Position numbers and translations under genes: made by a program. Below, piece by piece: positions 4,027 through 35,377 of a stretch of DNA of 64,000 bases. The DNA lies in contig MGVC01000005.1 in assembly GCA_001800285.1 (NCBI GenBank), positions 18,476 to 82,475 on the forward strand, given 5' to 3'. Position 1 is the stretch's first letter. Each line of letters opens with the position of its first letter. The notes beneath the pieces are model-generated. The model saw only the letters and a program-made list of their open reading frames with translations, was not told the origin of the DNA and made no database searches. The DNA comes from Elusimicrobia bacterium RIFOXYA2_FULL_39_19 (GTDB lineage: Bacteria > Elusimicrobiota > Endomicrobiia > CG1-02-37-114 > XYA2-FULL-39-19).

Positions 4027-4040
4027 TTTGTTTTAGGGGT

Positions 4041-5640: not shown

Positions 5641-5648
5641 GTGTGGCT

Positions 5649-20917: not shown

Positions 20918-21129
20918 TTTTCCTCAAATACCTACCCCGTGCAGTTTTCATCCTGATCTATCCTTTTACAATAGGATATCTGGATATTGCTCATAAAAAA
21001 AAACAATTTGAAAACTATCGCAGGGGTAAAGTGAAAACGATATCCTGTGAACAAAGATGTTTGGAATACAGGGTAAACGTCACACATGCATCCATCCGCG
21101 GGCGATCCCGTGAAAGTCTGCTGCCGTTT

Positions 21130-21166
21130 AAAAAACCGAGTGAAAGCATTGGAAAATGCCACTCGG
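21130..21166 (-). terminator. Intrinsic terminator hairpin plus U-tract in leader of giant gene (possible riboswitch expression platform, or 3' terminator of the hydrogenase operon)
   Basis: Minus-strand CCGAGTG-GCATT-TTCC-AATGC-TTT-CACTCGG followed by TTTTTT (7-bp + 5-bp stems with bulge). Confidence 0.5.
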
Positions 21167-21238
21167 TTGAGTTTACGACACTGTAACCTTACTGCGGTTT
21201 TTGGCGGCCTGGCGGTCATTGGACATTCCTCTTTTTTA

Positions 21239-21330
21239 GGCGTCTGCGCTTCAACTCCCTAGAACCGTTGGAGTCAGGCGTCCTTTAGACCCATAGCTTT
21301 GCGCCCGTCGGTTTCCCGGCGTTTGCTTTT
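21239..21330 (-). promoter_or_regulatory. Candidate c-di-GMP-I (GEMM) riboswitch aptamer upstream of giant T9SS protein gene
   Basis: Minus-strand AAGCAAAC-GCCGG-GAAA-CCGAC-GGGCGCAAAGCT-ATGGGTCTAAAGG... aligns with Vc2 GEMM core GGGCAAAC-CAUUC-GAAA-GAGUGG-GACGCAAAGCC (GCAAAC, 5-bp P-stem with GAAA tetraloop, then CGCAAAGC junction). Tetraloop-receptor-like TATGG/CTAAAGG follows. A -35 TTGACA lies just upstream and a terminator hairpin ~70 nt downstream. Confidence 0.4.
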
Positions 21331-21514
21331 ATCAATTTTTGTCAGTTTTGGTTTTGTAGAGCCAAGGTAATTTGTGCTTTTTGTCACACCCTGATATGTA
21401 TATAGTATGGAAAGATAGTAAAGTCAAGGCTTATTTACATAAACTTTACCGATGATTACTGCGGATTTGGGGTTTTAGGATTTGAGGTGACTAAAATTTC
21501 TGCTATTTGGTGTG

Positions 21515-22177
21515 TTATTTTATGCCGTATTCATCAAAAAGATGAACCTGATGGCGGCATTTGGGGCATGATATTTTGAAGATGTCCGGCCTTGCAATGT
21601 CTTTTATTTCGGTTTTGGGTTTATTGTTTTGGCTTAAATCCATTGATTGCTGGTAGGTTGAAAAAAGCGCGTAATTTCCGTAAGCCATGTGGCCTAATTT
21701 ATTAAACACCCACAGCAACTGGCTTATAGGGGCAATTACAGTGCTGCATTTTTCACACAGGAGCAGTTCTTTTTCTACGCCGGAAAATAGCGTTTTTCTG
21801 TCAAAGGTTGCCAGGTCAAATTCTGTATTGGAAAGTTTTACGCCTTTCTGCGTGGTGCATAGGCGCTCGCACTGCCCGCAGAATACACAAAGGTCATAAT
21901 GCCAGATTATACTGCGGTTAAAAACACCATCATTATCAGCAGATTCTTTTACTTCTATGGCCTGTGCCGGGCAGACTTCTGCGCAGGCACCGCAGGCAAT
22001 ACATTCATCCTGATTAGGGATAGGTTTACCGCGGAATCTTTTTTCCGGGACGTGCGGTTCATAAGGGAACCTTGAAGTATAGGGCCCTTTGATTAACGCT
22101 TTTATTGCTTCGCCAAGTTCTCTAAGTTTTGGATATCTCATATAAGTATTAACGCTGAACGCTAAATTGAAAATCAA
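21515..22177 (-). CDS. NuoI/HycF/MbhN-like 2x[4Fe-4S] ferredoxin subunit of membrane-bound hydrogenase
   Basis: CIACGACAEVCP and CVFCGQCERLC 4Fe-4S motifs; 220 aa; last gene of the operon. Confidence 0.75.
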   Translation of the reverse strand: MIFNLAFSVNTYMRYPKLRELGEAIKALIKGPYTSRFPYEPHVPEKRFRGKPIPNQDECIACGACAEVCPAQAIEVKESADNDGVFNRSIIWHYDLCVFCGQCERLCTTQKGVKLSNTEFDLATFDRKTLFSGVEKELLLCEKCSTVIAPISQLLWVFNKLGHMAYGNYALFSTYQQSMDLSQNNKPKTEIKDIARPDIFKISCPKCRHQVHLFDEYGIK

Positions 22178-22200
22178 TAAATATAAAACCTACAATAAAG

Positions 22201-22518
22201 TTATTTGTCTTTTTCATAATGGTCACAGACTGATTTTTCCCACGGCTTTACGCCGGAAAGATGTGCGGCGCGTGAAATAGCGTGGGCAGATACCGGCGCT
22301 GTAAGCAGTAAAAATAATGCGCAAAATATTGCTTTTATACCCACATCAGTAAATCCGTGGATTACAAATACGCCCAGCATAATGCCGCAGGTGCCGAACG
22401 TTACACATTTTATTGAGGCATGAAGCCGGTTATATAAATCCGGAAGCCTTACTAAACCCAAGCAGCCAATAAAATCAAAGGTTATCCCTATTCCTATAAA
22501 TATATACCCTATTAAATC
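22201..22518 (-). CDS. mrpG: Mrp antiporter subunit G (MnhG/MrpG)-like
   Basis: GLVRLPDLYNRLHASIKCVTFGT matches the MnhG signature. Start chosen at MIDLIGY so that ATG overlaps the mrpF stop (ATGA); the track ORF extends further upstream to 22569. Confidence 0.7.
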   Translation of the reverse strand, partial: DLIGYIFIGIGITFDFIGCLGLVRLPDLYNRLHASIKCVTFGTCGIMLGVFVIHGFTDVGIKAIFCALFLLLTAPVSAHAISRAAHLSGVKPWEKSVCDHYEKDK

Positions 22519-22852
22519 AATCATCAAATTTTTTCCCCTCAAGATATTTTGCCAGGGCAATAGTTGCAATAAAAGACTGCAGCGCCCACGCTATGGCTAT
22601 TTCAATAAAAAATATTTTATCTGTAAATACCGTTAAAACTCCGCAAAAACCTATGACCAGAATACCCAGAATATCTATGGCTACTACGCGGTCCGCCGGG
22701 GTTGGCCCCTTGTAAATCCTCCACAGGCATAATATACAAGAAGGAATAAGAAAGTTCACCATTCTCATAAGAGGTGAAAACTCATATTTCAGATTTACGG
22801 CTATTATCAACGCTATAAGTATCAGCCCTATAAACCAGCGTAATAATTTCAT
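22517..22852 (-). CDS. mrpF: Mrp antiporter subunit F (MnhF/MrpF)-like
   Basis: Small 3-TM protein with YKGPTPADRVVAIDILG motif typical of MrpF/PhaF. Confidence 0.7.
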   Translation of the reverse strand: MKLLRWFIGLILIALIIAVNLKYEFSPLMRMVNFLIPSCILCLWRIYKGPTPADRVVAIDILGILVIGFCGVLTVFTDKIFFIEIAIAWALQSFIATIALAKYLEGKKFDD

Positions 22853-22863
22853 TTTATATACCT

Positions 22864-23358
22864 TTATTCAAATATTTTTCCCAATATTTTTTCGTATTTG
22901 CCTATTATTATTTCTGTTGCTTTATCAATATCTTCGGTTTCCACGTTCATCCAGTGAACATAGAGATAACCGTTTTCACTGTCTACGTCTACGGTGAAAG
23001 TGCCGGGGGTAAGCGTGATTGTGTTTGCCAGATAAGTCAGGGCAGAATCACTGCGTAAATTTGTTTTTACTTTTACAATACCGGGTTTTATAGGAAGGCC
23101 CGGGTGCAGTATTCTGTAGGCGCCGTCAATATTTCCTTTTACCATTTCCCATATAAATACCCATATATAATAAACCGCCCATATATATCTTGCATGCTGT
23201 TTGAATTTCCAGGGGTTACGAGTTAATATATCGCCTACAGCCCAGGCAATAAATAAACTGATAATAACACCTGTCAGTAAATACTGCCAGTCTAAAGACC
23301 AGGTAAGGGCTACCCAGAAAACAAATGCCAATAGAAATGATAACGCTCTGCTTTTCAT
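22864..23358 (-). CDS. mrpE: Mrp antiporter subunit E (MnhE/MrpE)-like
   Basis: ANTITLTPGTFTVDVD matches the conserved MnhE ITLTPGT motif; 164 aa. Confidence 0.7.
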   Translation of the reverse strand: MKSRALSFLLAFVFWVALTWSLDWQYLLTGVIISLFIAWAVGDILTRNPWKFKQHARYIWAVYYIWVFIWEMVKGNIDGAYRILHPGLPIKPGIVKVKTNLRSDSALTYLANTITLTPGTFTVDVDSENGYLYVHWMNVETEDIDKATEIIIGKYEKILGKIFE

Positions 23359-23372
23359 GACTCGCCTTTTAT

Positions 23373-24845
23373 TTATTTCATAACTGCATCAGCATAACTT
23401 GAACCGTTTATTAATACATTAACTGCCGGGTCAAGCACTATAGCTTTTAAAGCGGGAACGTAAAGCAAACCCAACCCAATACATACCGCCGCTAAAACAA
23501 TCATTGAAACACACATGGATACGGGTGCTTCCTTTATACCTGCCCACTTGCTTTTCAGCTCACCGAAAAACACGTGCTTTTGAAGCTTAAGATAATATGA
23601 CAGGGTAATTATACTTATGATTACGGCAATAAAAGCCCCCATATACTGACCGGCCTGTATGGCGGCAACAATTATCAGCAACTTGCTCCAGAAGCCGCCG
23701 AAGGGCGGTATGCCTGATATGGACATGGAACCTATTATTGAAGTTATGGAAGTAACGGGCATTTTTTTCCCGAAACCGCCCATTTCACGGATATCGCGGA
23801 TATCATCTGCGGCATTTACTACGGCACCGGCAGTCATAAACATTAATGCTTTTGCATAAGCATGGTTTACCAGGTGAAATAAAGCCGCAAAATAACCCAG
23901 CGGCGTACCCAAACCCAAAGCAAAAAAGATATAGCCAATCTGGCTGATGGTTGAATAAGCCAGCATACGTTTAATATCATTCTGATAAACTGCCAGTATA
24001 CCGCCAAGAATAATTGAAGCCGTGCCCATAATCAGAAATGTTTTGCTTATCAGCAGGGTTATACCAAACACGTTAAACATAACGCGCAGTAATGTATAAA
24101 TACCCAGGGATTTTACCAGCACACCGGATAATAATGCTGAAATAGGAGACGGCGCCGAAGAATGTGCGTCAGGCAGCCAGGCATGAAAAGGAACAATGGC
24201 TGATTTCATGCCGGCACCGATTAAAAATAATACAATTACAAAACTAATCAGTTTATTGTCAGGCTTTTGTGCCAATATCTGCGCCATGTCCGCCATATTC
24301 AAAGTTGATGTGTAAGCATAGAGAAGGCAGACACCCATTAGAATAAACAACAAACCAACAGTATTAAGAACCGCATATTTAAAAGATGCTTCCAACTCTT
24401 CTGCGCGAGTACCGAACGCCACCAGTGCATAAGATGCCACGCCGCCTACTTCTATCCAGATAAGCAGGTTGAATAAATCTCCGGTAAGCACTGCTGCGTT
24501 CATACTGGCAAGCATAACCAGATATAGGGCAAAGTAAGTCCATTTTGAAGTATATTTACCTATGTAGCCAATAGAATAATTGGCGGCAACAAAAACAATT
24601 GTATTTATAATAACAAGAATTAAAATGCTTAACCCGTCAGCTACCAGGTTTATGCCCAGAGGCGGCGCCCAGCCGCCGATGTTGTAGGAGGTAAACCCGC
24701 CTTTAATAAGAAGTTTTAACGATAACACCATAAGAACAAAAGTAACCAGCCAGGTTATGGTATAGCTGACTTTTCTGGAATATTTTCCTGTTACGGAAAT
24801 TATAAAAGCGCCTGCTAACGGAATGATTATAAATAAAGGAAGCAT
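23373..24845 (-). CDS. mrpD: MrpD/NuoM/NuoN-family antiporter-like subunit
   Basis: 490-aa polytopic protein with PFHAWLPDAHSSAPSPISALLSGVLVKSLGIY proton-pumping-subunit motif. Confidence 0.75.
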   Translation of the reverse strand: MLPLFIIIPLAGAFIISVTGKYSRKVSYTITWLVTFVLMVLSLKLLIKGGFTSYNIGGWAPPLGINLVADGLSILILVIINTIVFVAANYSIGYIGKYTSKWTYFALYLVMLASMNAAVLTGDLFNLLIWIEVGGVASYALVAFGTRAEELEASFKYAVLNTVGLLFILMGVCLLYAYTSTLNMADMAQILAQKPDNKLISFVIVLFLIGAGMKSAIVPFHAWLPDAHSSAPSPISALLSGVLVKSLGIYTLLRVMFNVFGITLLISKTFLIMGTASIILGGILAVYQNDIKRMLAYSTISQIGYIFFALGLGTPLGYFAALFHLVNHAYAKALMFMTAGAVVNAADDIRDIREMGGFGKKMPVTSITSIIGSMSISGIPPFGGFWSKLLIIVAAIQAGQYMGAFIAVIISIITLSYYLKLQKHVFFGELKSKWAGIKEAPVSMCVSMIVLAAVCIGLGLLYVPALKAIVLDPAVNVLINGSSYADAVMK

Positions 24846-24848
24846 ATT

Positions 24849-25193
24849 TTAACCCTTGAGTTTATTGAGCTCTCTTATGTCATACGTGCCGTACTTATCA
24901 TAAATTCTCATTGCAATTGTTATAAGCAGAAAAGTTACTGCAAGGCTCATGACAACAAGTGTTAATATCATAGCCTGCACTACAGGGTCTACCATGGCAT
25001 CCGGGCGCGGCTCTGTCAGTGAAGTAAACACAGGAATAGTAGCGCCGTTTTTATAACCTACTAAAATAAGAAAGACATTCATGGAGTATTCCATAATGGA
25101 TAAACCAATAATTATTTTTATAAGGTTTCTTTTTATCAGTATTGCATAGAGGCCTAAGGTAAATAGTATAAAAGTAAGAATGTATTCAATCAT
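24849..25193 (-). CDS. mrpC: MrpC/NuoK-like small membrane subunit
   Basis: 114-aa 3-TM protein, position and size as MrpC; ATGA overlap with upstream gene. Confidence 0.65.
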   Translation of the reverse strand: MIEYILTFILFTLGLYAILIKRNLIKIIIGLSIMEYSMNVFLILVGYKNGATIPVFTSLTEPRPDAMVDPVVQAMILTLVVMSLAVTFLLITIAMRIYDKYGTYDIRELNKLKG

Positions 25194-25657
25194 TTTTTAT
25201 CCTCGCTAAGCCTGTAAAATATCAGCGCCAGAAACACGGAAAAAAAACCCGAGGCTACCGCCAGACATATTGCCAGGTTCATCAAAGGCATTATACCGGA
25301 ACTAAAAAGTGAAAATGGTTTTCCTATATAATCTACTCCCGGAGTGCGAAAAAAGTTATACATGAAATAACCTTTTGTCATTCCCAATATTCCCAGAATT
25401 AAAAAGGAAAGAGAACCTAACCCCACAAGAAACTGTATGGTTTTATCTGTTATTCTTTTCATAGCCACTTCTTTACCGAAAGCCAGCATAACGTGCATAT
25501 AAGAAAGAGCCACAATAATTCCGCCGGCAAAGCCGCCGCCGTGCACCAGATGGCCGTTCATAATGAAGTAAATACCAAACAACAGAATAAGCACCACCGT
25601 GTATCTGGTAATAGTTTTCACTATTATGGTCATGCCTTGTTCCGGTTTTTTAATCAT
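25190..25657 (-). CDS. mrpB: MrpB/MnhB-domain subunit
   Basis: GHLVHGGGFAGG matches the MnhB HLTPGGGFQGG motif. Confidence 0.7.
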   Translation of the reverse strand: MIKKPEQGMTIIVKTITRYTVVLILLFGIYFIMNGHLVHGGGFAGGIIVALSYMHVMLAFGKEVAMKRITDKTIQFLVGLGSLSFLILGILGMTKGYFMYNFFRTPGVDYIGKPFSLFSSGIMPLMNLAICLAVASGFFSVFLALIFYRLSEDKK

Positions 25658-25669
25658 ATTTTTTTCCTG

Positions 25670-26191
25670 TTATTGTTTCTCTTTATAGACTTTCTTCCTT
25701 ATAATCATCAGCACCGCAATAATTGAGGCAAACGCTATAGATACCTGTGCCAGCATATCAAAAGCCCTGTAATCAAGAATAATTGCAGATACAATGTTGG
25801 GCACGCCGGTTTGTACAAACCCGTTTTTAAGGTACTCTGAACCTATTTTCATAATAGGAGTTCCGAAACCCGGTATTTCAAGCAGGGCAATGTTAGCAAA
25901 TGTAAGAAAAATACCCATCAGGATAATGCTGATAGTTGTTGCAATAAATCTTCTTTCACGCACGTTTACCTTATCTTTTATTCCTACGGCACGGATAATA
26001 ATAACAAGTGAAAGAATTTCCACTACCAGCTGTAATATTGCCAGATCCGGGGATTGTAATAAAAGAAATACAATGGATAATCCCAGCCCCACTGCGCCAA
26101 TAGCTACCACCGAACCAAGTAAATCAGCCGTACCTATGGCTATAGCGGCCGCAATAATCATAAACACCAGAATAATCTGTATCTGAATCAT
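25670..26191 (-). CDS. MrpA-C-terminal/MnhB-N-terminal-like membrane subunit (DUF4040-like; MbhD/E-equivalent)
   Basis: 173-aa polytopic hydrophobic protein between the NuoL-like and MrpB genes, as in Mbh-type operons. Confidence 0.5.
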   Translation of the reverse strand: MIQIQIILVFMIIAAAIAIGTADLLGSVVAIGAVGLGLSIVFLLLQSPDLAILQLVVEILSLVIIIRAVGIKDKVNVRERRFIATTISIILMGIFLTFANIALLEIPGFGTPIMKIGSEYLKNGFVQTGVPNIVSAIILDYRAFDMLAQVSIAFASIIAVLMIIRKKVYKEKQ

Positions 26192-26192
26192 A

Positions 26193-28040
26193 TTACTTTC
26201 CTAAAAAAACGTACAACAGAATGGTTAAACCCATAATGCTCATGGCAAGGTAAATATGCATATTACCTGTATGCATCAGTGCTAACGCTGAAGCGAAAGC
26301 ATTCACAATAGCTTTTCCCCAGTCATAAATATCAAACACTTTTTTCTGGGCCAGCGCATAAGTTTGATCAAATATTTTTATTTCCTTAATAGTCTGGTAA
26401 AAATCTACGCCTGTTACCCTCTGGTTTTCCGGCAGCACTTCTCCGCCGATAAATATTTTATGCCGTTTTATTACAGACCCGAGACTGAAACTCGCCAGGA
26501 AAATAATAATGCCTATAATAATACACGCTATCAGAAGCATTGTGGCCAGTTCCGGCTGCCAGAAACCAATAAGATTTCCGCTTAACTGCAGATTAAATGC
26601 TGATAATGAAGGAATAATAAAATACTTTAAAGGAAGCGCAAAGGCAAACACGCCAAACACAATACAAAGCCCGGCAAGTAAAAGCTGGGGCAGCCACATC
26701 TGCCAGTTTACTTCGCCTTTTTGTTCATTTTTTTTCTGAGCGAAAAATATTGCATGAATAAGTTTCATAAAGCTTGCCAGTGTAAGGGCGGACCCAAACA
26801 TAGCCGCCACCAAACACACTAAAGCAATAATTTGAAATTTGGGTGATGCATTTTGAAATTGTGTTATCAGCCCCTGGTAAATCATCCACTTGGAAACAAA
26901 ACCGTTAAATGGCGGAACACCTGAAATAGACATAGACGCTATAAAAAACGCCGCAAAAGTCAGCGGCATGCCCGCTTTGCCTGCCAACGCGCCCAGTTTA
27001 TCTAAATCTGTGGTACCGGTTTTCTTTTCTATGGAACCGCCGCATAAAAAAAAGCAGGATTTGTATATTGCGTTATTTAACATATGAAATATTCCGCCTG
27101 CTATGCCCACCGGGTTTCCCGTGGCAAGGCCTAATATCATATAACCAACTTGTGAAACAGCGTGATAGGAAAGCAGTTTTTTCAGGTCATGTTGTATCAT
27201 GGCCATAAAAACAGCGGCAATAATCGTAACTGCACCTATAAACATAAGAAAAGCCGTTAACGGCAAACTTAAAGAAAACAAATTAAGTGAAATTCTGGCA
27301 AGCAGATAAATACCCAGCAGTTTATCCAGTGATGCCGGAAGAAGGGCAATTACCGGGGCAGGCGTTACAGGAGCCATATCTGGTATCCATGTATGAAAAG
27401 GCATAGCCCCTGCTTTTGCAAACGCTCCTATAGCCAAACATAAAAACGCTGTAAGAGCCAGCGTTGAATCTGCGGTTGAAAGAAATATTTTATCCATCTG
27501 CAAAGTACCGGTTAAAACCCAGATAATTGCAATACCTAAAATCATAAGGCAGTCTGAACCACCTACTATGATAAAGGTTTTCTTTGCCGCATCTTTTGAA
27601 TCCGGCGAATTTGATTGTATGAGAACATAAAGCGTTAAACCCAGAAAACCCCAGAAAACAAGCATTAATATCAGATTGTTTGCCAGCACACAGCCCAACG
27701 CCGCACTTATTGACCATAAAACAGATGTATAATAAAAACTTGAAATTGAAAATTTGTCTGTTTTAGGAAAGAATTTTGTTGAATATAGTATTACCAGTAT
27801 ACCAAACAAAGCAATGAACAGCACCAGAAAACGGTTGAAATTATCTATACGGAAAAGTTCTAAACCAAAAAGCTGAAAGTTAACGGGATTTGTTCTAAAA
27901 ATAATAAAAGTCATCAGAAATACAGCAATGGAACCGGCAAGTGCAAGCAGCTCGGCAATTAGCCTCTGCTTTTTAGGAATAACTGCGCAGACAAGCCCTG
28001 CGACAAACGGCACAGCTAATAAATATAAAATTAAATCCAT
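26193..28040 (-). CDS. MrpA/NuoL/MbhH-like large antiporter-type subunit
   Basis: 615-aa polytopic protein with WIPDMAPVTPAPVIALLPASLDKLLGIYLLARI and HAVSQVGYMILG motifs of complex-I subunit 5 family. Confidence 0.8.
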   Translation of the reverse strand: MDLILYLLAVPFVAGLVCAVIPKKQRLIAELLALAGSIAVFLMTFIIFRTNPVNFQLFGLELFRIDNFNRFLVLFIALFGILVILYSTKFFPKTDKFSISSFYYTSVLWSISAALGCVLANNLILMLVFWGFLGLTLYVLIQSNSPDSKDAAKKTFIIVGGSDCLMILGIAIIWVLTGTLQMDKIFLSTADSTLALTAFLCLAIGAFAKAGAMPFHTWIPDMAPVTPAPVIALLPASLDKLLGIYLLARISLNLFSLSLPLTAFLMFIGAVTIIAAVFMAMIQHDLKKLLSYHAVSQVGYMILGLATGNPVGIAGGIFHMLNNAIYKSCFFLCGGSIEKKTGTTDLDKLGALAGKAGMPLTFAAFFIASMSISGVPPFNGFVSKWMIYQGLITQFQNASPKFQIIALVCLVAAMFGSALTLASFMKLIHAIFFAQKKNEQKGEVNWQMWLPQLLLAGLCIVFGVFAFALPLKYFIIPSLSAFNLQLSGNLIGFWQPELATMLLIACIIIGIIIFLASFSLGSVIKRHKIFIGGEVLPENQRVTGVDFYQTIKEIKIFDQTYALAQKKVFDIYDWGKAIVNAFASALALMHTGNMHIYLAMSIMGLTILLYVFLGK

Positions 28041-28042
28041 TT

Positions 28043-29257
28043 TTATTCCGTAATACCCATTTTCTTTTTCAGTTCCCGGGTTTTTTCCTGGCTGAGTTTT
28101 ATTAAATCACTGCCGCCTAATATTTTCTTATTGGTGTTTTTATCAATTACAACGCATCTTTCTGTACAGCAATAGCACGGGTCTACCGCTCCTAAGGTGA
28201 TAGCGGCGTCAGAAATAGTTCCCTTGATTGCGGTAATTTCATTTGTTGGCACATTTACATAAGAAGGGGCGCGGATTTTATGCCTTACCGGCCTGTTGGA
28301 ACCGTCTGAACGCACAAAGTGGAACACTTCCCCTCTGGGCGCTTCGTGCCGGCCTATGCCTTCACCTGCAGGAATGTTTTTTATTTTAAGATCAAAATTG
28401 CCTTCCGGCTCTTTTTTCAGGCCGTTTAAACAACCGCGTATTATTTTCACAGATTCGTACATCTCTAAAACACGTACTACAATTTTATCAAAGATATCAC
28501 CGTTAACGGCAGTAATAACTTTCCAATCTACCATACCGTAAGCGGCATATGGATTATCCCTGCGGATATCAATATCTACGCCGCTTGCTCTTGCTAGCGG
28601 GCCGACAGCGCAGAAATCTATAGCTTCTTTTTTTGTAAGCGGACAGATGCCTTTGGCTCTGGCTTGAATTACCGGGTCATCCATGACAGCGCCCTTGAAA
28701 AGGTCTATATAAGGAAGCAGGCCATCAAGCATTTTTTCCATTCTGGGAATATCTTCATTCAAAATATCTAAACGGACCCCACCGATTTTAAACATTGAAT
28801 AATGCTGGCGGTTACCGGTAATGTACTCCATAACATCTAATAACGGCTCTCTGGCTTTCCAGACCCACATCCATACAGTATTGTATCCTATAAAATGCCC
28901 CGCAAGTCCCAGCCAAAGCAAATGCGAGTGCAGTCTTTCAAGTTCGCCAACTATGGAACGGATATATTTGGTTCTGTCGGTCACTTCTATGCCTGCAAGA
29001 TCTTCTACGGCATTTACATAAGCAAACGGGTGTGAAGTGGAACAAATACCGCAGATTCTTTCAACAGTGAAAGCTACCTGGTCAAAGTGTTTGCTTTCGG
29101 AAATTTTTTCTATGCCACGGTGGTTATAACCGATTTCTATATCCAGTTTTTCCACTTTTTCGCCGTTTACAAACAGCTTGAAAAATTCAGGCTCTTCCTG
29201 AAGCGGATGATACGGCCCTATCGGTATAACAGTTTGTTTTTTCTTTTCTTCTTCCAT
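28043..29257 (-). CDS. Group 4 [NiFe] hydrogenase large (catalytic) subunit (NuoD/HycE/MbhL-like) with intact Ni-Fe ligands
   Basis: N-terminal RICGICSTSH (L1 RxCGxCxxxH) and C-terminal DPCYCCTER (L2 DPCxxCxxR) both present; 404 aa. Confidence 0.85.
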   Translation of the reverse strand: MEEEKKKQTVIPIGPYHPLQEEPEFFKLFVNGEKVEKLDIEIGYNHRGIEKISESKHFDQVAFTVERICGICSTSHPFAYVNAVEDLAGIEVTDRTKYIRSIVGELERLHSHLLWLGLAGHFIGYNTVWMWVWKAREPLLDVMEYITGNRQHYSMFKIGGVRLDILNEDIPRMEKMLDGLLPYIDLFKGAVMDDPVIQARAKGICPLTKKEAIDFCAVGPLARASGVDIDIRRDNPYAAYGMVDWKVITAVNGDIFDKIVVRVLEMYESVKIIRGCLNGLKKEPEGNFDLKIKNIPAGEGIGRHEAPRGEVFHFVRSDGSNRPVRHKIRAPSYVNVPTNEITAIKGTISDAAITLGAVDPCYCCTERCVVIDKNTNKKILGGSDLIKLSQEKTRELKKKMGITE

Positions 29258-29329
29258 TTGCTTTCCCTTGCCCCGTCTGCCTTTGCAGGACGGATAATTC
29301 TAATGCTCTAAGCTCTAATTTCTAATGCT

Positions 29330-29764
29330 CTACTTCTCCGTCTGCCTTAACGGGTATTTGCCTTCCGGCCAGTCTTCTGCCAGAAGCAATCTTTTCATAT
29401 TCGGATGATTTTTAAAATTTATGCCCAGCATTTCCCAGATTTCACGCTCAATCCATTCGGCTCCGCGGATAAGCGGTGTGATAGAATCTATTTCCGGTTT
29501 ATCTTTTTCGTTTAAGTAAACGCGCAGGGTTATGACTTCGCCTGTTTTGTCATAAGAAAAATGGTACATTATTTCAAACCCGGTCCTTAAATGAACCCCG
29601 GTGGCTGTAATGAAACGGCTTTCTAAACCGTTAAACATTATTTTTGTGCATTCAATGATGTCATGCGGATTTATTTCCAGATAATGGCGTTTCTCGTTTT
29701 TCTTGAAATAATTTTTTACTTTATTTCCCAGTTTTTCTCTTGCTTTTTCTATAATGCTTTCCAT
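29330..29764 (-). CDS. NuoC/MbhK-like 30-kDa subunit
   Basis: EREIWEMLGINFKNHPNMKRLLLAEDW matches NuoC signature. Confidence 0.75.
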   Translation of the reverse strand: MESIIEKAREKLGNKVKNYFKKNEKRHYLEINPHDIIECTKIMFNGLESRFITATGVHLRTGFEIMYHFSYDKTGEVITLRVYLNEKDKPEIDSITPLIRGAEWIEREIWEMLGINFKNHPNMKRLLLAEDWPEGKYPLRQTEK

Positions 29765-29775
29765 TTTATTCCTGT

Positions 29776-30201
29776 TTATAAACCTTTAAGTTTTTTTATC
29801 AGCTTTACCACGCCCATTATCATGGCTTCAGGCTTCGGCGGGCAGCCCGGGACATACGCATCAACGGGTATTATTTCATCCAGTGGTTTTACGAAATTAT
29901 AGGAATCCCTGAACATATTACCTCCGCAGGCGCAGCTGCCTATGGCTATAACAACACCGGGCTTGGGCATCTGTTCATAAACTTCTTTTATCCTGGGGGC
30001 TGTTTTCATGTTTGGTACGCCGGTAACCAGCATGGCATCGGCATGTTTTATACTGCCTACCAGAGATATACCAAAACGTTCCACGTCATGCCTGGGTGTA
30101 AGCAGGTCAAGAATTTCTATATCGCAGTTGTTGCACGGGCTACAAGCCGCGTGATAAACCCAGATTGATTTGGTAAGCGCTTTGATAACTATTTTTTTCA
30201 T
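29776..30201 (-). CDS. [NiFe] hydrogenase small subunit / NuoB/MbhJ-like (proximal 4Fe-4S)
   Basis: CSPCNNC...GSCACGGNMF...VPGCPPKPE, the conserved NuoB/HycG Cys pattern; 141 aa. Confidence 0.8.
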   Translation of the reverse strand: MKKIVIKALTKSIWVYHAACSPCNNCDIEILDLLTPRHDVERFGISLVGSIKHADAMLVTGVPNMKTAPRIKEVYEQMPKPGVVIAIGSCACGGNMFRDSYNFVKPLDEIIPVDAYVPGCPPKPEAMIMGVVKLIKKLKGL

Positions 30202-31110
30202 TTATAATCCGATTAACGCCAGAATTACTGCAATTAAGGACAATCCTGCGCCGTAGGTCCAGAAAAACTTTACGGCCTGGTCTATTCTTAAACGCGGATT
30301 TGTGTTTTTTATAAGTATTATTATTACAAGAACTCCAGCAAATTTAAGTAAGTTGTACAAAAAATCTGCAGAAGGCATAAACAGGGCTACAAGAAAACTA
30401 GGCAAAACAAAAAGCATAATCCATTTTGTAAGCTTAAATATTGCCAGAGGCGTGCCGGAATATTCTACTGCCGGGCCTGCAATAATTTCCTGTTCCGCTT
30501 CCGGAATGTCAAAAGGTGTCAAGCAAAGTTTTGCCTGGATACATAAAATTGCCACAATAAAAGCAATTATGCCTGAAGCTGATGTAATAACTGCCGGATT
30601 TGCCAACTGATAAGTTACTATGTCGCCCATTCTTATACTGCCTGTTTTTATGATGACAGTGAGAATACTTAAAATAAAAGGAATCTCATAAGAAAGAATT
30701 AGTTTCATTTCTCGGCTTGCGCCGATAGATGCTATAGGATTATTGGAAGCAAAACCGCCAATTATTACCGCTATTGAAGGAATGGCCAGCAGATAGATTA
30801 CTACAATTAAATCTCCTATAAAGGTTTTGCCGGGTACAAGCATGGCATTCCATACTATTACTGACACCAGGGTGATAGCGGCCAGCCCGAAAACCGGAGC
30901 GGACAAAAACGTAAATACAGAGGTCTGTTCCGGCACAGAAATTTCTTTGCCCAGCAATTTTACGAAATCATAAACCGGTTGTAACAAAGGAGGGCCTTTA
31001 CGCCACTGGACCCTGGCTGATACCTTTCTGTCAATATAAACAGCCAGCATTCCGAAAACTGCGGAAAACAAAAAACCCGGAAAAATTAAATAATCAAAAA
31101 ATGTGCTCAT
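30202..31110 (-). CDS. NuoH/HycD/MbhM-like membrane subunit
   Basis: RKVSARVQWRKGPP N-terminal motif of NuoH/ND1 family; 302 aa, polytopic. Confidence 0.8.
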   Translation of the reverse strand: MSTFFDYLIFPGFLFSAVFGMLAVYIDRKVSARVQWRKGPPLLQPVYDFVKLLGKEISVPEQTSVFTFLSAPVFGLAAITLVSVIVWNAMLVPGKTFIGDLIVVIYLLAIPSIAVIIGGFASNNPIASIGASREMKLILSYEIPFILSILTVIIKTGSIRMGDIVTYQLANPAVITSASGIIAFIVAILCIQAKLCLTPFDIPEAEQEIIAGPAVEYSGTPLAIFKLTKWIMLFVLPSFLVALFMPSADFLYNLLKFAGVLVIIILIKNTNPRLRIDQAVKFFWTYGAGLSLIAVILALIGL

Positions 31111-31111
31111 T

Positions 31112-31645
31112 TTATTTTACTACTCCGGCTTTTGCATCTTTTTTCCATGGTATACCATGGACTGCCAGGTGGTCATTTATTATATAAATGTTTTTTTCTG
31201 CCGATTCTTCAACTTCAACATATTTAAGCGCTTTGTTTGGGCAGGTTTCTACACAGAGCGGGTCTTTATCATCAGACCTTCCCGCACAATAATCACAACC
31301 GGAAGATTTATAAGGAAGTATGTCAGGATATATTGTACCAAACGGGCAAGCTACGCTGCAGGATTTACAGGAAGTGCATTTCATCATAAACCGCTGTAAT
31401 ATACCCGCATCATCTTTGCCCAGGGCTTCCTGCGGGCAGGCATTAACACAGAACTTTTCTTCGCATCTTCTGCAGACTACGTACTGGGCCGCTTTTGAAA
31501 GCATCTTTTCCGGGCCGTTGTTTGTTATAGGCGTTTTTAAAAGGTTTTCTGTGTTATGATAAAAGTAACTGCATTTGGCAGAACAGCACTTATCCTGATT
31601 TTTGCATTTGTAGCAGATTTCTATGTCTAAAAGTATTCTTTTCAT
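31112..31645 (-). CDS. Poly-ferredoxin-like 4Fe-4S cluster protein (electron-transfer subunit)
   Basis: Several CxxCxxCxxxCP-type motifs (CVNACP, CKSCSVACP, CDYC...CVETCP); 177 aa. Confidence 0.65.
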   Translation of the reverse strand: MKRILLDIEICYKCKNQDKCCSAKCSYFYHNTENLLKTPITNNGPEKMLSKAAQYVVCRRCEEKFCVNACPQEALGKDDAGILQRFMMKCTSCKSCSVACPFGTIYPDILPYKSSGCDYCAGRSDDKDPLCVETCPNKALKYVEVEESAEKNIYIINDHLAVHGIPWKKDAKAGVVK

Positions 31646-31647
31646 GT

Positions 31648-32475
31648 TTAATCCCAGATTTCCGGTTCATCCTTCAGTTGTTCATAAGTGAAAACCGGAC
31701 CATCTTTACAACAATAGTGAGGGCCGACACCGCAATGCCCGCATTTTCCCAGCCCGCAGCTCATATTTCTTTCCATGGAAAGATACGTATTTTCAGGGTT
31801 ATAACCCTGCTGGTATATTTTAAGCGTGGCAAATTTCATCATTATCGGCGGCCCGCAGACAATTACCGCGGCATTATCTCTGTCTGCATTTACTTTATCA
31901 AGCAAACAGGTGACTAAGCCCACTGTTTCATCCCATTTTACATTTTCCGGACATTTATCTACGCTTCTTACAATTTCAAGGCCCTTTATTTCTTTCCATT
32001 TCGGGAAAAGATATTTATAAACTACATCATCCGGTGTTTTGGAACCGTAACATAAAGTAATTTTTTTGAATTTTTCAATTTGTTCAATCAAAGTCAGAAG
32101 CAGTGACCGCAGAGGAGCCAACCCTACCCCTCCGCCGACTATCAGCACTTCATGGTTAAAATATTTTTCTACCGGGTAGCCTTTGCCGTAAGGGCCTCTT
32201 AAACCAACAGTATCTCCGGGTTTAAGGGCATGAATTTTTTCTGTGTTTACACCCACCTTCATTATGGTAAATTCCATGGTATCTTTAACTGAAGGAGAAG
32301 ATGACGGCGTAAAGGCAGATTCTCCGATACCCGCTATTGTAACCAGCATGAACTGGCCGGTTTGAAAAGCTATAGGCTGTTTGGGCCTGAAGACAAAAGT
32401 TTTGATGGAAGCTGTTTCATCAATTACTTTTTCAACCGTTGCTTCTATGGGAAGATAGGGATTAACCTGGCTCAT
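31648..32475 (-). CDS. FAD/NAD(P)H-binding oxidoreductase with C-terminal [2Fe-2S] (sulfhydrogenase gamma / AsrB / PyrK-like)
   Basis: FNR-like fold signatures (FRPKQP...GQFMLV; GGGVGLAPL nucleotide-binding loop) and C-terminal CGLGKCGHCGVGPHYCC cluster motif; 275 aa. Confidence 0.7.
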   Translation of the reverse strand: MSQVNPYLPIEATVEKVIDETASIKTFVFRPKQPIAFQTGQFMLVTIAGIGESAFTPSSSPSVKDTMEFTIMKVGVNTEKIHALKPGDTVGLRGPYGKGYPVEKYFNHEVLIVGGGVGLAPLRSLLLTLIEQIEKFKKITLCYGSKTPDDVVYKYLFPKWKEIKGLEIVRSVDKCPENVKWDETVGLVTCLLDKVNADRDNAAVIVCGPPIMMKFATLKIYQQGYNPENTYLSMERNMSCGLGKCGHCGVGPHYCCKDGPVFTYEQLKDEPEIWD

Positions 32476-32479
32476 ATAG

Positions 32480-33490
32480 TTAACTTTCTGCGCTTAGTTT
32501 TTTTACTACGTCGCGGATATCAATTTTGCCGGGGCATACAGAAATACAGCGGCCGCAGCCGGTACAAGCATAGATGCCAAAATTAGTTTTTCTGTAATTT
32601 AATTTGCACTGGTACCTGTTTCTGAATCTTTCATGGATTTTCGGCCTGGCATTTCCGCCGCCGGCCACTTTGCCGTGAGTAGTGTAATGGCAGGCGTCCC
32701 AGTAGCGATACTTAGCATTAGCTTCAGTTAAGTAGAAACAATAACAGCTGGGGCAGATGTTGTTGCAGCCGGTGCACTGAACACAGGTTTTACAGTATTC
32801 TTTCCAGCTTTCTGATAGATACTTTCTTCCTGCTAAACCCTTAAAATCAATATCTTTTATACTTTTATAATTAACATTTATGCGGTCAAGCGTTTTTACT
32901 GCAGAGTCACGCATTTCTTCTCTTTTAGATAGCTCTGTATCAACTGCATCCCTGAAAAACGCCTGGGCCTGAGCTATGATTTCTTCTGCAACAACTGAAA
33001 TCACATCTACTACATAACCGTCATCAACTGGAGAAAAATTAAGGTCAAAACTTTTATTTTCATAGGCCTGAGCAAACGGATTGCCGCCTATAAAGGTGCA
33101 GAAACAGGTATCTTTTGGGGTTGGGCAATCTGAAGCAAAGATGAGCGTATTAGCCAGCTTGTTTTCTACAAACGGGTCAGTGCATACTCCGCCTAAATAT
33201 ACTTCTTTTATTATTTTCAGGGCATTCAAGTCACAGGCTTTTACACCAAAGATTATTGTTTTCTTTTCCAAATTAAGAGAGGCCGTATCCAGTTTTTCGT
33301 TGTGATTAAAGAAAAAAGACCTTAAGGGCAGGTTGGCGCGGACATTATCGATGCTTATATCAATTGACGGGCCATTAGCGGAATACTTTTTGTAGGCATC
33401 ATTATCAGCAAGGTAGTAGATATCATTATCTACCGATAGCGTGCCTAAAAAATCGTTTAAATCTTTCTTAAAAATAAATTGTGATTTCAT
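32480..33490 (-). CDS. 4Fe-4S protein, sulfhydrogenase beta / AsrA-like
   Basis: 336 aa with CKTCVQCTGCNNICP and CTGCGRCISVCP ferredoxin motifs plus additional Cys pairs. Genomic pairing with the gamma/AsrB-like gene. Confidence 0.6.
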   Translation of the reverse strand: MKSQFIFKKDLNDFLGTLSVDNDIYYLADNDAYKKYSANGPSIDISIDNVRANLPLRSFFFNHNEKLDTASLNLEKKTIIFGVKACDLNALKIIKEVYLGGVCTDPFVENKLANTLIFASDCPTPKDTCFCTFIGGNPFAQAYENKSFDLNFSPVDDGYVVDVISVVAEEIIAQAQAFFRDAVDTELSKREEMRDSAVKTLDRINVNYKSIKDIDFKGLAGRKYLSESWKEYCKTCVQCTGCNNICPSCYCFYLTEANAKYRYWDACHYTTHGKVAGGGNARPKIHERFRNRYQCKLNYRKTNFGIYACTGCGRCISVCPGKIDIRDVVKKLSAES

Positions 33491-33623
33491 AAGATTAGTT
33501 AAATTATTTGAATTATCAGATTAAACAAAATTATTCCATTTATGTCAAGAAAATGCACTCAAAACATGCTTTTGTTAATCCACGCGGGCAGAGCCAGTGG
33601 TATTCTGTTGCCGTTTTACGGGG

Positions 33624-34343
33624 TTAGGCCTCGGTTTTTTCTATTTCTTTGGCAAGAATTACAGCTTCAGCTACGGCACGAAGGGTTTTACGGGCATCCA
33701 TACTTTTTTTCTGCAGCAGCCTGTAGGCATCTTCTTCAGAATGACCATACTGTTTCATAATGATACCTTTGGCTTTTTCTACAAGCTTGCGGGTTTCAAG
33801 CTCTTCTTTTAAAATATTTGATGTGACCAGCAGGTTCGCATTTTCTATAACTACGGCCGCCTGGTTTGCAACAGTTGTTAAGACAGCTATTTCTGAATCA
33901 GTAAACTTATGAAAAAATGAAGTATAACAATTTAAAGCTCCAATGGGTTTACCTTTTACGTCCAGCGGCACGCACAGCAAGGACTTTAAACCCAGTTTTT
34001 TTGCCATATCCTTAAATTTAAACTCCGGTTCATTTAAAACATCTAAAACCTGAATAGGTTTATTTTCCTTGAGTACTTTACCTGCAATGCCTTCCCCTAT
34101 TTTTAAAGAACCCTTTTTTATATATTCCTCACTCATGCTTTGGGTAGCTTTAATGTCCAGGGCTCCCTGCTTTACATCAAATAACATTATTGAACAGATC
34201 TCTGATTTCATTACCTGTGCGGTTACGGTGACAATAAGCTTTAAAATATCTTCCAAGTAAAGGTCTGATGTGATGGCTTTGCTGATTTTTGAGACAGCGT
34301 TAATGAAATCATTGTGGTCAGTCTTGTTTCTTGTTTTTTTCAT
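33624..34343 (-). CDS. GAF-domain plus ANTAR-domain RNA-binding antiterminator regulator
   Basis: N-terminal GAF-like region. C-terminal AKGIIMKQYGHSEEDAYRLLQKKSMDARKTLRAVAEAV matches ANTAR consensus (AKGiLM...EeAy..Lr..Sm..n.kL..vAe.v). Confidence 0.7.
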   Translation of the reverse strand: MKKTRNKTDHNDFINAVSKISKAITSDLYLEDILKLIVTVTAQVMKSEICSIMLFDVKQGALDIKATQSMSEEYIKKGSLKIGEGIAGKVLKENKPIQVLDVLNEPEFKFKDMAKKLGLKSLLCVPLDVKGKPIGALNCYTSFFHKFTDSEIAVLTTVANQAAVVIENANLLVTSNILKEELETRKLVEKAKGIIMKQYGHSEEDAYRLLQKKSMDARKTLRAVAEAVILAKEIEKTEA

Positions 34344-35377
34344 TGTATTTTTGATTGTATTTCTGCAATTTTGCAGGCTGTCTTTGATTTTCCGGTTATT
34401 TTTCCTGTTTCAAGCAGCGCAATTCCCGGGCATCTTCTACACGCTTTAATGTTACTACATTTCAAACACTCTTTGCAATCTTTTGTACTGTATTTTCTAA
34501 GCCTTTTTGCTTTTTTTGATTTATGCCATATATTTCTGAAACTTTGATTTTTCAAATTTCCAAGCGGATATAATAACTGCAAACATGGATAAACAATTCC
34601 CTGCGGTGAAATACCGGCAAAAACTTTGCCTGCATTGCAAAACAAATCAGGAACATCCTGTAATGAAACATCTGTTGAAACTTCGTACTGGTTTATCAGA
34701 TATTTATTTAACTTTTTATCCGTATAAATGGTTTTAAGCTTTTCGGCGCTTAACTGAAACCTCTGGATTGTGCAGTCACCGTTATTTTGGGGGGCAAGGA
34801 CCGGGTCAAGCCTGTATTCAAACTTATTTTTTTTGGCAAATTTTATCAGCCATTTGTAATCGTTGAAGTTTATATTCAGAAGCGGCGCTTTAATTCTAAC
34901 CGGAACCTTGTATTTCTTTAATAATTTCAATGCAACAAGTGTTTTTTTAAAAGAATTGTTTTTTGCCGTTATCTGTTCATGACTTTTTTTTCTTCCGTAC
35001 AAACTTATCTCTACAGCGCTTAACCCGATTTCCGATAACATTTTTGCGTGTTCTTTTGTTATTAAAGTACCGTTTGAAAAAAGCCGGAGATCAAAATTTA
35101 ATTTCCTGGCGTAAGCGCATAATTCTAACAAGTCTTTGCGTAAAAATATCTCTCCACCGGTAAAACATAAGTACAGGCAACCGGCGCGGGCAAGCTTATC
35201 AAGGATTGTTTTTACTTCCTTCGTGTTTAATTCGCTTTTGTTTTGTTTTATCAGGTAGCAATGCAGGCATTTCAGGTTACATCTATGCGTAAGTTCAAAT
35301 ACGGTATAAAGCGGCAGGTTATTTTTATATGCAGCTTCTGTTAAACTGTTTGATGGGCTAATCATTTTGTATTTCAA
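34340..35377 (-). CDS. Radical SAM / SPASM-domain peptide-modifying maturase
   Basis: CNLKCLHC (CX3CX2C) near N-terminus. C-terminal Cys-rich SPASM-type CKECLKCSNIKACRRCPG; 345 aa. Confidence 0.75.
   Translation of the reverse strand: MKYKMISPSNSLTEAAYKNNLPLYTVFELTHRCNLKCLHCYLIKQNKSELNTKEVKTILDKLARAGCLYLCFTGGEIFLRKDLLELCAYARKLNFDLRLFSNGTLITKEHAKMLSEIGLSAVEISLYGRKKSHEQITAKNNSFKKTLVALKLLKKYKVPVRIKAPLLNINFNDYKWLIKFAKKNKFEYRLDPVLAPQNNGDCTIQRFQLSAEKLKTIYTDKKLNKYLINQYEVSTDVSLQDVPDLFCNAGKVFAGISPQGIVYPCLQLLYPLGNLKNQSFRNIWHKSKKAKRLRKYSTKDCKECLKCSNIKACRRCPGIALLETGKITGKSKTACKIAEIQSKIQ

Follow-up and report, generated by a model that had tools for sequence, protein, structure and literature searches.

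A 64,000-nt window of the genome of the groundwater organism Elusimicrobia bacterium RIFOXYA2_FULL_39_19 (contig MGVC01000005.1 of assembly GCA_001800285.1, positions 18,476 to 82,475 of the forward strand) contains, on its minus strand at 21515–33490, 16 consecutive same-strand open reading frames (ORFs) for a group 4 [NiFe] hydrogenase, an Mrp-type membrane arm and two subunits resembling the beta and gamma subunits of sulfhydrogenase. "Window" denotes the whole of this stretch, and positions are counted from its first letter. An initial annotation of this DNA had described 16 co-directional, tightly spaced genes; this was borne out by the ORF list of the window and by Pfam, whose assignments of all 16 ORFs agree with the earlier gene list. 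In transcription order, and with the candidate promoter given last, the features are as follows.

Gene 1, 32480–33490, minus strand: AsrA/sulfhydrogenase-beta-like Fe-S subunit, 336 aa (Pfam Fer4_22, 8.9e-22)
Gene 2, 31648–32475, minus strand: AsrB/sulfhydrogenase-gamma-like FAD/NAD(P)H/[2Fe-2S] subunit, 275 aa (Pfam FAD_binding_6, NAD_binding_1 and DHODB_Fe-S_bind)
Gene 3, 31112–31645, minus strand: CooF/HycB-type polyferredoxin, 177 aa, 16 Cys, likely 4 x [4Fe-4S] (Pfam Fer4_11)
Gene 4, 30202–31110, minus strand: NuoH/MbhM-like membrane anchor, 302 aa (Pfam NADHdh, 1.5e-67)
Gene 5, 29776–30201, minus strand: NuoB/MbhJ-like small subunit, 141 aa (Pfam Oxidored_q6, 5.5e-30)
Gene 6, 29330–29764, minus strand: NuoC/MbhK-like subunit, 144 aa (Pfam Complex1_30kDa, 2.2e-28)
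Gene 7, 28043–29257, minus strand: [NiFe] hydrogenase large subunit, 404 aa (Pfam Complex1_49kDa and NiFeSe_Hases)
Gene 8, 26193–28040, minus strand: NuoL/HycC/MbsH'-type antiporter-like subunit with a C-terminal extension, 615 aa (Pfam Proton_antipo_M)
Gene 9, 25670–26191, minus strand: MbhD+MbhE fusion (MrpA C-terminal/NuoJ-like), 173 aa (Pfam MbhD, 1.7e-11; MbhE, 1.7e-5)
Gene 10, 25190–25657, minus strand: MrpB/MbhF, 155 aa (Pfam MnhB, 8.1e-22)
Gene 11, 24849–25193, minus strand: MrpC/NuoK/MbhG, 114 aa (Pfam Oxidored_q2, 8.9e-25), starting in an ATGA overlap
Gene 12, 23373–24845, minus strand: MrpD/MbhH antiporter-like subunit, 490 aa (Pfam Proton_antipo_M, 3.4e-72)
Gene 13, 22864–23358, minus strand: MrpE/MbhA, 164 aa (Pfam MNHE, 3.7e-45)
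Gene 14, 22517–22852, minus strand: MrpF/MbhB, 111 aa (Pfam MrpF_PhaF, 5.9e-16)
Gene 15, 22201–22527, minus strand: MrpG/MbhC, about 107–108 aa (Pfam PhaG_MnhG_YufB, 1e-23), likely start at 22524 (ATG) or 22527
Gene 16, 21515–22177, minus strand: NuoI/HycF-type 2x[4Fe-4S] subunit (Pfam Fer4 families), likely ATG start at 22141 (208 aa)
Promoter, 33520–33548, minus strand: tentative sigma-70-like promoter, TTGACA (33548–33543), 17 nt, TTTAAT (33525–33520), about 30 nt 5' of the first start codon

The junctions range from an overlap of 8–11 nt, between mrpF and mrpG, to a gap of 23 nt, with the exception of one 72-nt spacer. The initial annotation had counted four 4-nt ATGA start/stop overlaps; only one was found, at the MnhB/MrpC junction (25190–25193), and the remaining ATGA-like junctions are start codons that read ATGA after a separate upstream TAA stop. 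The gaps separating asrA, asrB and cooF measure 2 nt and 4 nt and leave no room for a promoter or terminator, no sign of which was found there, as had been claimed. No terminator-like site occurs at any junction of the operon, and promoter-like matches, obtained by a consensus scan, are at chance level (34 seen versus 36.6 expected); a match at 10 of 12 positions lies within asrB (31901–31873). Since the junctions are short, terminators are absent from them and promoter-like sites do not exceed chance, it is likely that the 16 genes form one transcription unit. The candidate promoter was read by eye, having been missed by the scan because its -10 hexamer has no A at position 2. In an Rfam scan of 20800–34400, no match fell within the operon or its leader.

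The 72-nt spacer (29258–29329, minus strand) separates the NuoC-like and large-subunit genes and carries two copies of a local direct repeat, (G/T)TAGAGCATTAGAA. No significant fold was detected in it (z = -1.06), the repeat has no further copies in the window, and the spacer is missing in relatives, being lineage-specific. For mrpG, the mechanical ORF reaches 22569, and the public gene call on contig L001 gives 108 aa. This contig is one of three public contigs from different assemblies (L001, L002 and L003) that carry an identical large subunit and each start no more than 6 nt from the CooF-like start codon; such starts at the asrB/cooF junction (31645–31648) possibly reflect strain-level variation of the module or an assembly artefact.

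Cofactor sites and likeness to known complexes

The hydrogenase core is encoded by genes 4 to 7. In 80 relatives of the large subunit the L1 (CGICSTSH) and L2 (DPCYCCTER) motifs are invariant, as are the NiFe ligands Cys 69, 72, 361 and 364; the motif definitions, taken from the literature, were C[GS][ILV]C[AGNS]xxH for L1 and [DE][PL]Cx[AGST]Cx[DE][RL] for L2. Cys 363, at an L2 position occupied by A, G, S or T in other hydrogenases, is likewise present in 80 of 80. The best match among solved structures is P. furiosus MbhL (6cfw_L, 5.7e-85), followed by E. coli HycE, and the protein extends about 37 aa past the L2 motif at its C-terminus (28043–28150 region). Four cysteines of the NuoB-like small subunit (23, 26, 90 and 120) are invariant and suffice for one proximal [4Fe-4S] cluster, while the NuoH-like anchor retains many invariant acidic residues (E134, E142, E204, E206, E208 and E216). 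The L1/L2 ligand cysteines, the one-cluster NuoB-like subunit and the NuoC-, NuoH-, NuoI- and NuoL-like partners are those of a group 4 [NiFe] hydrogenase, in agreement with the initial annotation, and judged by its motifs the enzyme should be catalytically competent.

The products of the two leading genes resemble the beta and gamma subunits of P. furiosus sulfhydrogenase I (SH1), as had also been proposed. The AsrA-like protein aligns with SH1 beta (9nez_B, E 3e-32) over residues 51–325, and its 15 cysteines, invariant in 59 relatives, are all common to SH1 beta. The AsrB-like protein matches SH1 gamma over its full length (9nez_C, E 1e-54); among 64 relatives the FTPSS.P motif for FAD, the GGGvGlAP motif for the nucleotide and Cys 240/245/248/256 for the [2Fe-2S] cluster are invariant. 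Residue 146 is R or K without exception and aligns with an Arg of the NADPH-using SH1 gamma, and Y153 and K154 are conserved. From this basic residue 146 we lean towards NADPH rather than NADH as the nucleotide of the gamma-like subunit.

The top NCBIfam models for both proteins were of the sulfhydrogenase and Asr families, all scoring under the equivalog cut-offs (ShyB, 164 bits versus 690; HydG-gamma, 196 versus 650; AsrA, 104 versus 323, E 8e-30; AsrB, 211 versus 289, E 1.6e-62), and the two proteins are therefore relatives, not orthologues, of the sulfhydrogenase and Asr proteins. Thus, a beta/gamma module of the group 3b sulfhydrogenase type is present, both subunits having conserved ligands, whereas a group 3b holoenzyme is not: the equivalog scores are not reached and the partner is a group 4 core. 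Compared with SH1 beta/gamma and Salmonella AsrAB, the proteins are homologous and have the same Cys ligand sets and FAD/NAD(P)H motifs, but they are joined to a membrane-bound group 4 core and not to a cytoplasmic alpha/delta dimer or AsrC.

Genes 3 and 16 encode further Fe-S subunits. The polyferredoxin has PDB matches to HycB (7z0s_B), HycB3/HycB4 of HDCR and others; the middle 8 of its cysteines are invariant and the outer 8 are conserved at 70–88% in 69 relatives. The gene 16 product matches HycF (7z0s_F, 4.1e-19), with its C-terminal CxxC...CPxC motif aligning with the Cys pairs CNCRVC and CPEC of HycF, and its best NCBIfam match is 'formate hydrogenlyase complex iron-sulfur subunit'. 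Each of its 12 cysteines is 96–100% conserved in the family alignment. The 3' position of this NuoI-like gene had been taken as an oddity, the gene being described as stranded, but it is a conserved trait of the family, and in the Pyrococcus mbh operon mbhN likewise comes last.

A HycB-type 4x[4Fe-4S] protein together with a HycF-type subunit carrying the C-terminal Cys motif constitutes an input wire of the formate hydrogenlyase type, and no formate dehydrogenase is encoded in the operon. The operon shares with E. coli formate hydrogenlyase (group 4a) the logic by which a soluble dehydrogenase feeds a HycB/CooF-type polyferredoxin, a HycF-type subunit and then a group 4 core. The same plug-in logic is seen in the Thermococcus Fdh-Mfh-Mnh and CODH-Mch-Mnh complexes (group 4b; CODH, carbon monoxide dehydrogenase), which are also Mrp-linked. 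In contrast to these, the dehydrogenase in the window is a FAD/NAD(P)H flavoprotein pair rather than a molybdopterin formate dehydrogenase or CODH. The peripheral arm hence resembles a formate hydrogenlyase arm in which the beta/gamma flavoprotein pair takes the place of the formate dehydrogenase.

All Mrp-type components were recognized by Pfam in genes 8 to 15, as expected from the full Mrp module of the initial annotation, and the gene content (N- and C-terminal parts of MrpA, and MrpB, C, D, E, F and G) is that of an Mrp (CPA3) module. The two MrpB-type pieces reported earlier differ in identity: the second (25190–25657) is MrpB, whereas the first (25670–26191) is MbhD+MbhE, the C-terminal part of MrpA. 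The 615-aa subunit aligns over its full length with chain 6u8y_X of P. furiosus MBS (9–609/9–612) and with Nqo12. Lysines of TM7, TM8 and TM12 (TM, transmembrane helix) are invariant in this subunit (K209, K240 and K384) and in the MrpD-like subunit (K214, K245 and K388). With two antiporter-like subunits, the membrane arm looks like that of MBS/Mrp. MBS (Mrp-Mbx; 6u8y) also has two such subunits, the 615-aa protein matching MbsH' (chain X) from end to end; however, MBS lacks the NiFe-binding cysteines and reduces polysulfide, whereas the window family keeps all four.

Compared with P. furiosus Mbh (group 4d; 6cfw), which provides the best solved match of the large subunit and, in MbhH, the top match of the 615-aa subunit, all 14 Mbh subunit types are present in the window operon. 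The differences are that the Mrp genes, instead of coming first, are placed after the large subunit and before NuoI, that a second antiporter-like subunit of the NuoL/MbsH' type and three electron-input subunits are added, that MbhD and MbhE are fused, and that the last gene is of the HycF and not the MbhN type. Thus, the order asrA-asrB-cooF-M-J-K-L-(H'/I)-DE-F-G-H-A-B-C-N is not that of a Pyrococcus-type Mbh (4d).

Complex I and the SudA-linked MBX (PMC3035292) have in common with the window operon the concept of a nicotinamide-nucleotide dehydrogenase placed on a NuoBCDHI-type core with antiporter-like subunits. However, the NAD(P)H module here is not homologous to NuoEFG or SudA, and the acceptor would be H+ instead of quinone. 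The operon is not one for complex I, as domains of the NuoE/F/G type are absent from it and the NiFe cysteines are retained. The initial annotation had suggested an evolutionary intermediate between Mbh and complex I. Since the module, an FNR/PyrK-type flavoprotein plus a sulfhydrogenase-beta-type Fe-S protein, is unrelated to NuoE/F/G, this suggestion was rejected as unsupported, and the module appears to be a parallel solution to complex I, not its ancestor.

Related loci, regulation and flanking genes

Homologues of the large subunit with 62–85% identity number in the thousands and come mostly from metagenome-assembled genomes (MAGs). A pattern scan of one genome per species recovered large-subunit relatives from at least 586 species; the best 80 loci were analysed, and synteny was scored by tblastn of the 16 window proteins against these loci. 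The order AsrA-AsrB-CooF-NuoH-NuoB-NuoC-large subunit is kept in 58 of the 59 loci with enough upstream sequence, so that the beta/gamma-like genes were found to co-occur with the operon in essentially all testable relatives. Of the 47 loci with enough downstream sequence, 42 have NuoI and the complete Mrp set, and all 16 genes occur in order in 35 loci. Carriers belong to at least 10 phyla and include Elusimicrobiota, Endomicrobia, Omnitrophota, Planctomycetota and Bacteroidota (Bacteroidales/Rikenellaceae/Lentimicrobiaceae), as well as Chitinispirillaceae, Chlamydiota, Nitrospirota, Eisenbacteria, Auribacterota and FCPU426. This arrangement is far above chance, and the recurrence of the gene order across so many phyla argues that the NAD(P)H module is an intrinsic part of this hydrogenase family.

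Variants of the operon were also found. In five short forms (L056, L058, L061, L078 and L085) AsrA-AsrB-CooF and the core are kept while MrpB to MrpG are missing, and L078 has no antiporter-like match at all. Eight long forms (L008–L012, L016, L038 and L046), from Endomicrobia and some Omnitrophota, contain one more MrpD-like gene downstream of that for the large subunit. Two AsrB-like homologues picked only for their long contigs both lie inside group 4 operons. Since the Mrp-less short forms and these blindly picked loci keep the pairing, the beta/gamma/CooF module appears to go with the hydrogenase core, not with Mrp, and to be no chance neighbour. In 8 loci the module is retained with small genes inserted between asrB and cooF (encoding TPR, cNMP-binding, four-helix and pilin-like proteins, among others); all being small and unrelated, these insertions were rejected as candidates for a catalytic subunit. 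In two Elusimicrobia contigs (L085, 2556–5852; L086, 2681–5890), asrA is directly preceded by genes of the same direction for an acyl-CoA dehydrogenase, EtfB and a ferredoxin-domain EtfA, which make up a Bcd/EtfAB-like set.

The architecture, put forward as novel in the initial annotation, is already catalogued, in RIFOXYA2_FULL_39_19 itself. Méheust et al. 2020 (10.1101/765248) described "Mbh-Mrp-oxidoreductase type" group 4 hydrogenases in Elusimicrobia and stated that the function of the oxidoreductase was unknown. Their Table S3 scores this genome as positive for Mbh-Mrp, Mbh-Mrp-Oxred, Ehr, Rnf, the Wood-Ljungdahl carbonyl branch and F-ATPase, with no [FeFe], group 1 or group 3 hydrogenase. 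The window operon has the group 4 large subunit, Mrp and extra oxidoreductase genes of this type. As the same table gives only the Oxred type plus Ehr for RIFOXYB2_FULL_48_7, whose large subunit is the closest relative (85% identical), the clade is the Oxred type. Matheus Carnevali et al. 2019 (PMC6349859) reported an "enigmatic" cluster in Saganbacteria RX5A with hydrogenase, Mrp, cooF, asrA, asrB and an unclassified molybdopterin oxidoreductase. The last is not in the window operon, nor was a molybdopterin oxidoreductase among the 18 largest gene families flanking related loci. Neither report assigned a function to the oxidoreductase or proposed NAD(P)H coupling.

Mrp-linked relatives in Omnitrophota, Cloacimonadota, Auribacterota and Endomicrobium have been reported as HydDB group 4g, with ferredoxin assumed. 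This group is labelled "ferredoxin-coupled, putative", has no characterised enzyme and is heterogeneous, its subgroups 4g-1 to 4g-6 differing in subunit sets. Omnitrophota, Auribacterota and Endomicrobium MAGs, possibly not those reported as 4g, have large subunits 64–73% identical to that of the window and the same operon. The ferredoxin assumption overlooks the conserved beta/gamma module. In a limited literature search we found no proposal of NAD(P)H coupling for this group 4/Mbh clade, the sole NAD(P)H precedent being the SudA-linked NADPH-MBX proposal for Desulfurococcaceae (PMC3035292).

Recurrent neighbours of the related loci were identified by clustering the flanking ORFs. A gene for the Rex repressor lies 51–424 nt upstream of asrA in 16 of 55 related loci (L006–L084 range). 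When 1.27 Mb of related loci was scanned for the Rex operator TTGTGAAnnnnTTCACAA with at most one mismatch, 14 sites were obtained, 13 of them within 300 nt upstream of asrA and the remaining one 333 nt upstream. A Rex gene or strict Rex box was found in 25 of 58 related loci. Rex control in these relatives would link expression of the operon to the NADH/NAD+ ratio.

Maturation genes recur as well. A HycI-type protease gene directly follows the last operon gene in 23 related loci, which fits the C-terminal extension of about 37 aa of the large subunit, although none was found in the window; hypA, hypD, hypE and hypF recur near related operons. At 2848–5999 of the window (minus strand), beside hypA, are genes for HydG (TIGR03955, 547 bits) and for HydE (256 bits) with an N-terminal HypC domain, and in five other genomes (L023, L024, L032, L053 and L082) this HypC-HydE and HydG pair comes directly after the corresponding group 4 operon. 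Despite HydG and HydE, the genome is listed without [FeFe] hydrogenase (10.1101/765248, Table S3). The pair may provide a radical-SAM route to the CO/CN ligands of a [NiFe] enzyme.

The sole Rfam match in 20800–34400 is a c-di-GMP-I riboswitch (RF01051) at 21200–21337 on the minus strand, with 61.3 bits against a gathering threshold of 35 (E 3e-10). It lies within the 300 nt that separate the last hydrogenase gene from the gene for a repetitive surface/adhesin-like protein of 4244 aa (8183–20917, minus strand), which is probably under c-di-GMP control, and it marks the 3' boundary of the operon, whose end is at 21515. Directly upstream of the operon and in the same direction (region 33624–36412, minus strand) is a gene for a GAF-ANTAR RNA-binding regulator; the three genes beyond it, for a radical SAM/SPASM enzyme, a PqqD-like protein and a 264-aa protein lacking annotation, resemble a RiPP-maturase trio. 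The ANTAR regulator is not kept beside the operon in related loci.

Proposed reaction and competing explanations

We propose, with a probability of about 0.55, that the operon encodes a single membrane complex acting as an ion-translocating, reversible NAD(P)H:H+ oxidoreductase. This function is considered the most likely because the cofactor sites are conserved, the synteny is obligatory and the related loci point to control by Rex. As suggested by homology, NAD(P)H would donate hydride to the FAD of the gamma-like subunit, from which electrons would pass via its [2Fe-2S] cluster to the Fe-S clusters of the beta-like subunit, then through the four clusters of the HycB/CooF-like polyferredoxin to the two of the HycF-like subunit, and finally through the single cluster of the NuoB-like small subunit to the [NiFe] site, where protons would be reduced to H2. 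Turnover at the NuoB/NuoD/NuoH interface would drive movement of H+ or Na+ through the MBS/Mrp-like arm, which is predicted to be formed by the NuoL/MbsH'-type subunit, MbhD/E, MrpC, MrpD and MrpB/E/F/G.

That NAD(P)H is the partner in vivo is our inference, as is the reaction direction; we favour evolution of H2, by which fermentative carriers would dispose of NAD(P)H. The standard potentials are -414 mV for H+/H2 and -320 mV for NAD(P)+/NAD(P)H, and the sign of ion coupling would therefore be set by H2 pressure. Electron transfer from NAD(P)H to H2 would be uphill by about 94 mV at 1 bar H2 and downhill at H2 pressures in the Pa range, as found in sediments and aquifers, above all with a reduced NADPH pool. 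At high H2 the complex would accordingly draw on the ion gradient, whereas at low H2, as is usual in sediments and groundwater, it could build the gradient up. Reverse electron transport at the expense of the gradient, as suggested by the initial annotation, therefore stands as one of two possible coupling directions, but it is not obligatory, as the reaction can be exergonic at environmental H2.

Several points weigh against the proposed NAD(P)H-linked reaction. Neither a rex gene nor, near the operon, a Rex box was found in the window, and a GAF-ANTAR regulator lies upstream instead; the six Rex-box matches of the window, with 2–3 mismatches, are scattered and at chance level. In other bacteria Rex also governs ferredoxin-dependent fermentation enzymes, so Rex control is no proof that NADH is the direct substrate. 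Moreover, Rex senses NADH, whereas the residues of the nucleotide site lean towards NADPH. In the NuoL/MbsH'-like subunit a Gly (motif fWG, around residue 131) replaces the TM5 Glu family-wide, and since the canonical Glu is lacking the pumping stoichiometry of this subunit is uncertain. The literature on group 4g assumes a ferredoxin donor; the HycB-like polyferredoxin could also take electrons from soluble ferredoxin. RIFOXYA2_FULL_39_19, with Rnf and the Wood-Ljungdahl carbonyl branch, is predicted to be an H2-using acetogen (10.1101/765248), which favours the opposite direction, H2 uptake.

Ferredoxin might be the main donor, entering through the HycB/CooF-like polyferredoxin with the beta/gamma pair as a side branch, so that the complex would be a three-way junction of ferredoxin, NAD(P)H and H2; it might then act as a membrane-bound ferredoxin:NAD(P)+ oxidoreductase plus hydrogenase, or have both donors feeding proton reduction. 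The large subunit is closest to the ferredoxin-dependent MbhL, proteins of the CooF/HycB type serve quite generally as electron hubs, ferredoxin is assumed in every published reconstruction of group 4g relatives, and the Bcd/EtfAB set upstream of asrA in the two Elusimicrobia loci is ferredoxin-reducing. On the other hand, Pyrococcus Mbh takes electrons from ferredoxin with neither a polyferredoxin nor a flavoprotein, a module found in 58 of 59 loci would be odd for an optional branch, and the carrier genome already has Rnf for exchange between ferredoxin and NAD+; ferredoxin as main donor is considered unlikely. We consider it rather improbable that the same complex works in the uptake direction, reducing NAD(P)+ with H2 and exporting ions in acetogenic Elusimicrobia without soluble bifurcating hydrogenases. 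According to the standard potentials, H2 can reduce NAD(P)+ with a driving force of about 94 mV at 1 bar H2, and sulfhydrogenase I, the source of the module, is bidirectional. The Table S3 profile of the carrier (Rnf, Wood-Ljungdahl carbonyl branch and F-ATPase, with Mbh-Mrp, Mbh-Mrp-Oxred and Ehr as its only hydrogenases) and the H2/CO2 acetogenesis predicted for these Elusimicrobia lineages (10.1101/765248) also suit uptake, although the prediction is based on MAG content alone. Groundwater H2, however, would normally be far under the pressure that makes this reaction exergonic, the putative Rex-type control in relatives fits NADH disposal better, and most other carriers (Bacteroidales, Omnitrophota and Chitinispirillaceae) are fermenters.

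The AsrA/AsrB-like proteins could instead belong to a sulfite or sulfur/polysulfide reductase drawing electrons from the hydrogenase or NAD(P)H, i.e. a membrane "sulfhydrogenase" or Asr-type enzyme. Their NCBIfam AsrA and AsrB matches (E 8e-30 and 1.6e-62) and the reduction of S0 in vitro by sulfhydrogenase I, known from the literature, point that way; yet both scores lie under the curated cut-offs, the proteins are closer to sulfhydrogenase beta/gamma, and neither the operon nor the 16-gene set conserved across related loci includes an AsrC/sirohaem subunit. A sulfur- or sulfite-reducing function thus seems very unlikely, and an AsrABC sulfite reductase was rejected because AsrC is missing and the scores fall short. 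That the asrAB-like genes are mere neighbours, separately expressed and functionally unrelated to the hydrogenase, is hardly credible. The three public contigs that begin at the asrB/cooF junction and the promoter-like match inside asrB would agree with it, but the gaps are only 2–4 nt, promoter-like matches are at chance level, the order is conserved in 58 of 59 loci from at least 10 phyla, and the module persists in the 8 loci with insertions between asrB and cooF; an unrelated neighbourhood was therefore rejected on the basis of synteny.

A further and rather doubtful extension is that such Elusimicrobia do without flavin-based electron bifurcation and rely instead on two membrane hydrogenases that are coupled to each other chemiosmotically. 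Ions would be exported by the beta/gamma-fronted complex as it transfers electrons from H2 to NAD(P)+, and the plain Mbh-Mrp (or Rnf) would spend the gradient in reducing ferredoxin. If this were true, an acetogen would gain both reductants from H2 without HydABC, and in fermenters the reverse operation would represent the long-sought single-complex, ion-coupled, NAD(P)H-dependent H2-evolving hydrogenase.

The present analysis offers a sharpened functional hypothesis and two new observations, the apparent Rex control of the operon in relatives and the invariance of the cofactor sites, rather than a new architecture. If the NAD(P)H:H+ oxidoreductase reading is correct, the beta/gamma pair would be a fourth class of electron-input module for group 4 hydrogenases, after ferredoxin, formate dehydrogenase and CODH, and the complex would be a one-enzyme alternative to Rnf plus Ech or to a confurcating HydABC for producing H2 from nicotinamide nucleotides. 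Relatives are spread across anaerobes, including Omnitrophota, Elusimicrobiota, Bacteroidales of digesters and sediments, and Planctomycetota, and metagenome papers routinely file the enzyme as a ferredoxin-dependent Mbh. Were it linked to NAD(P)H, those reconstructions would come out with different redox balances, ATP yields and H2 thresholds.

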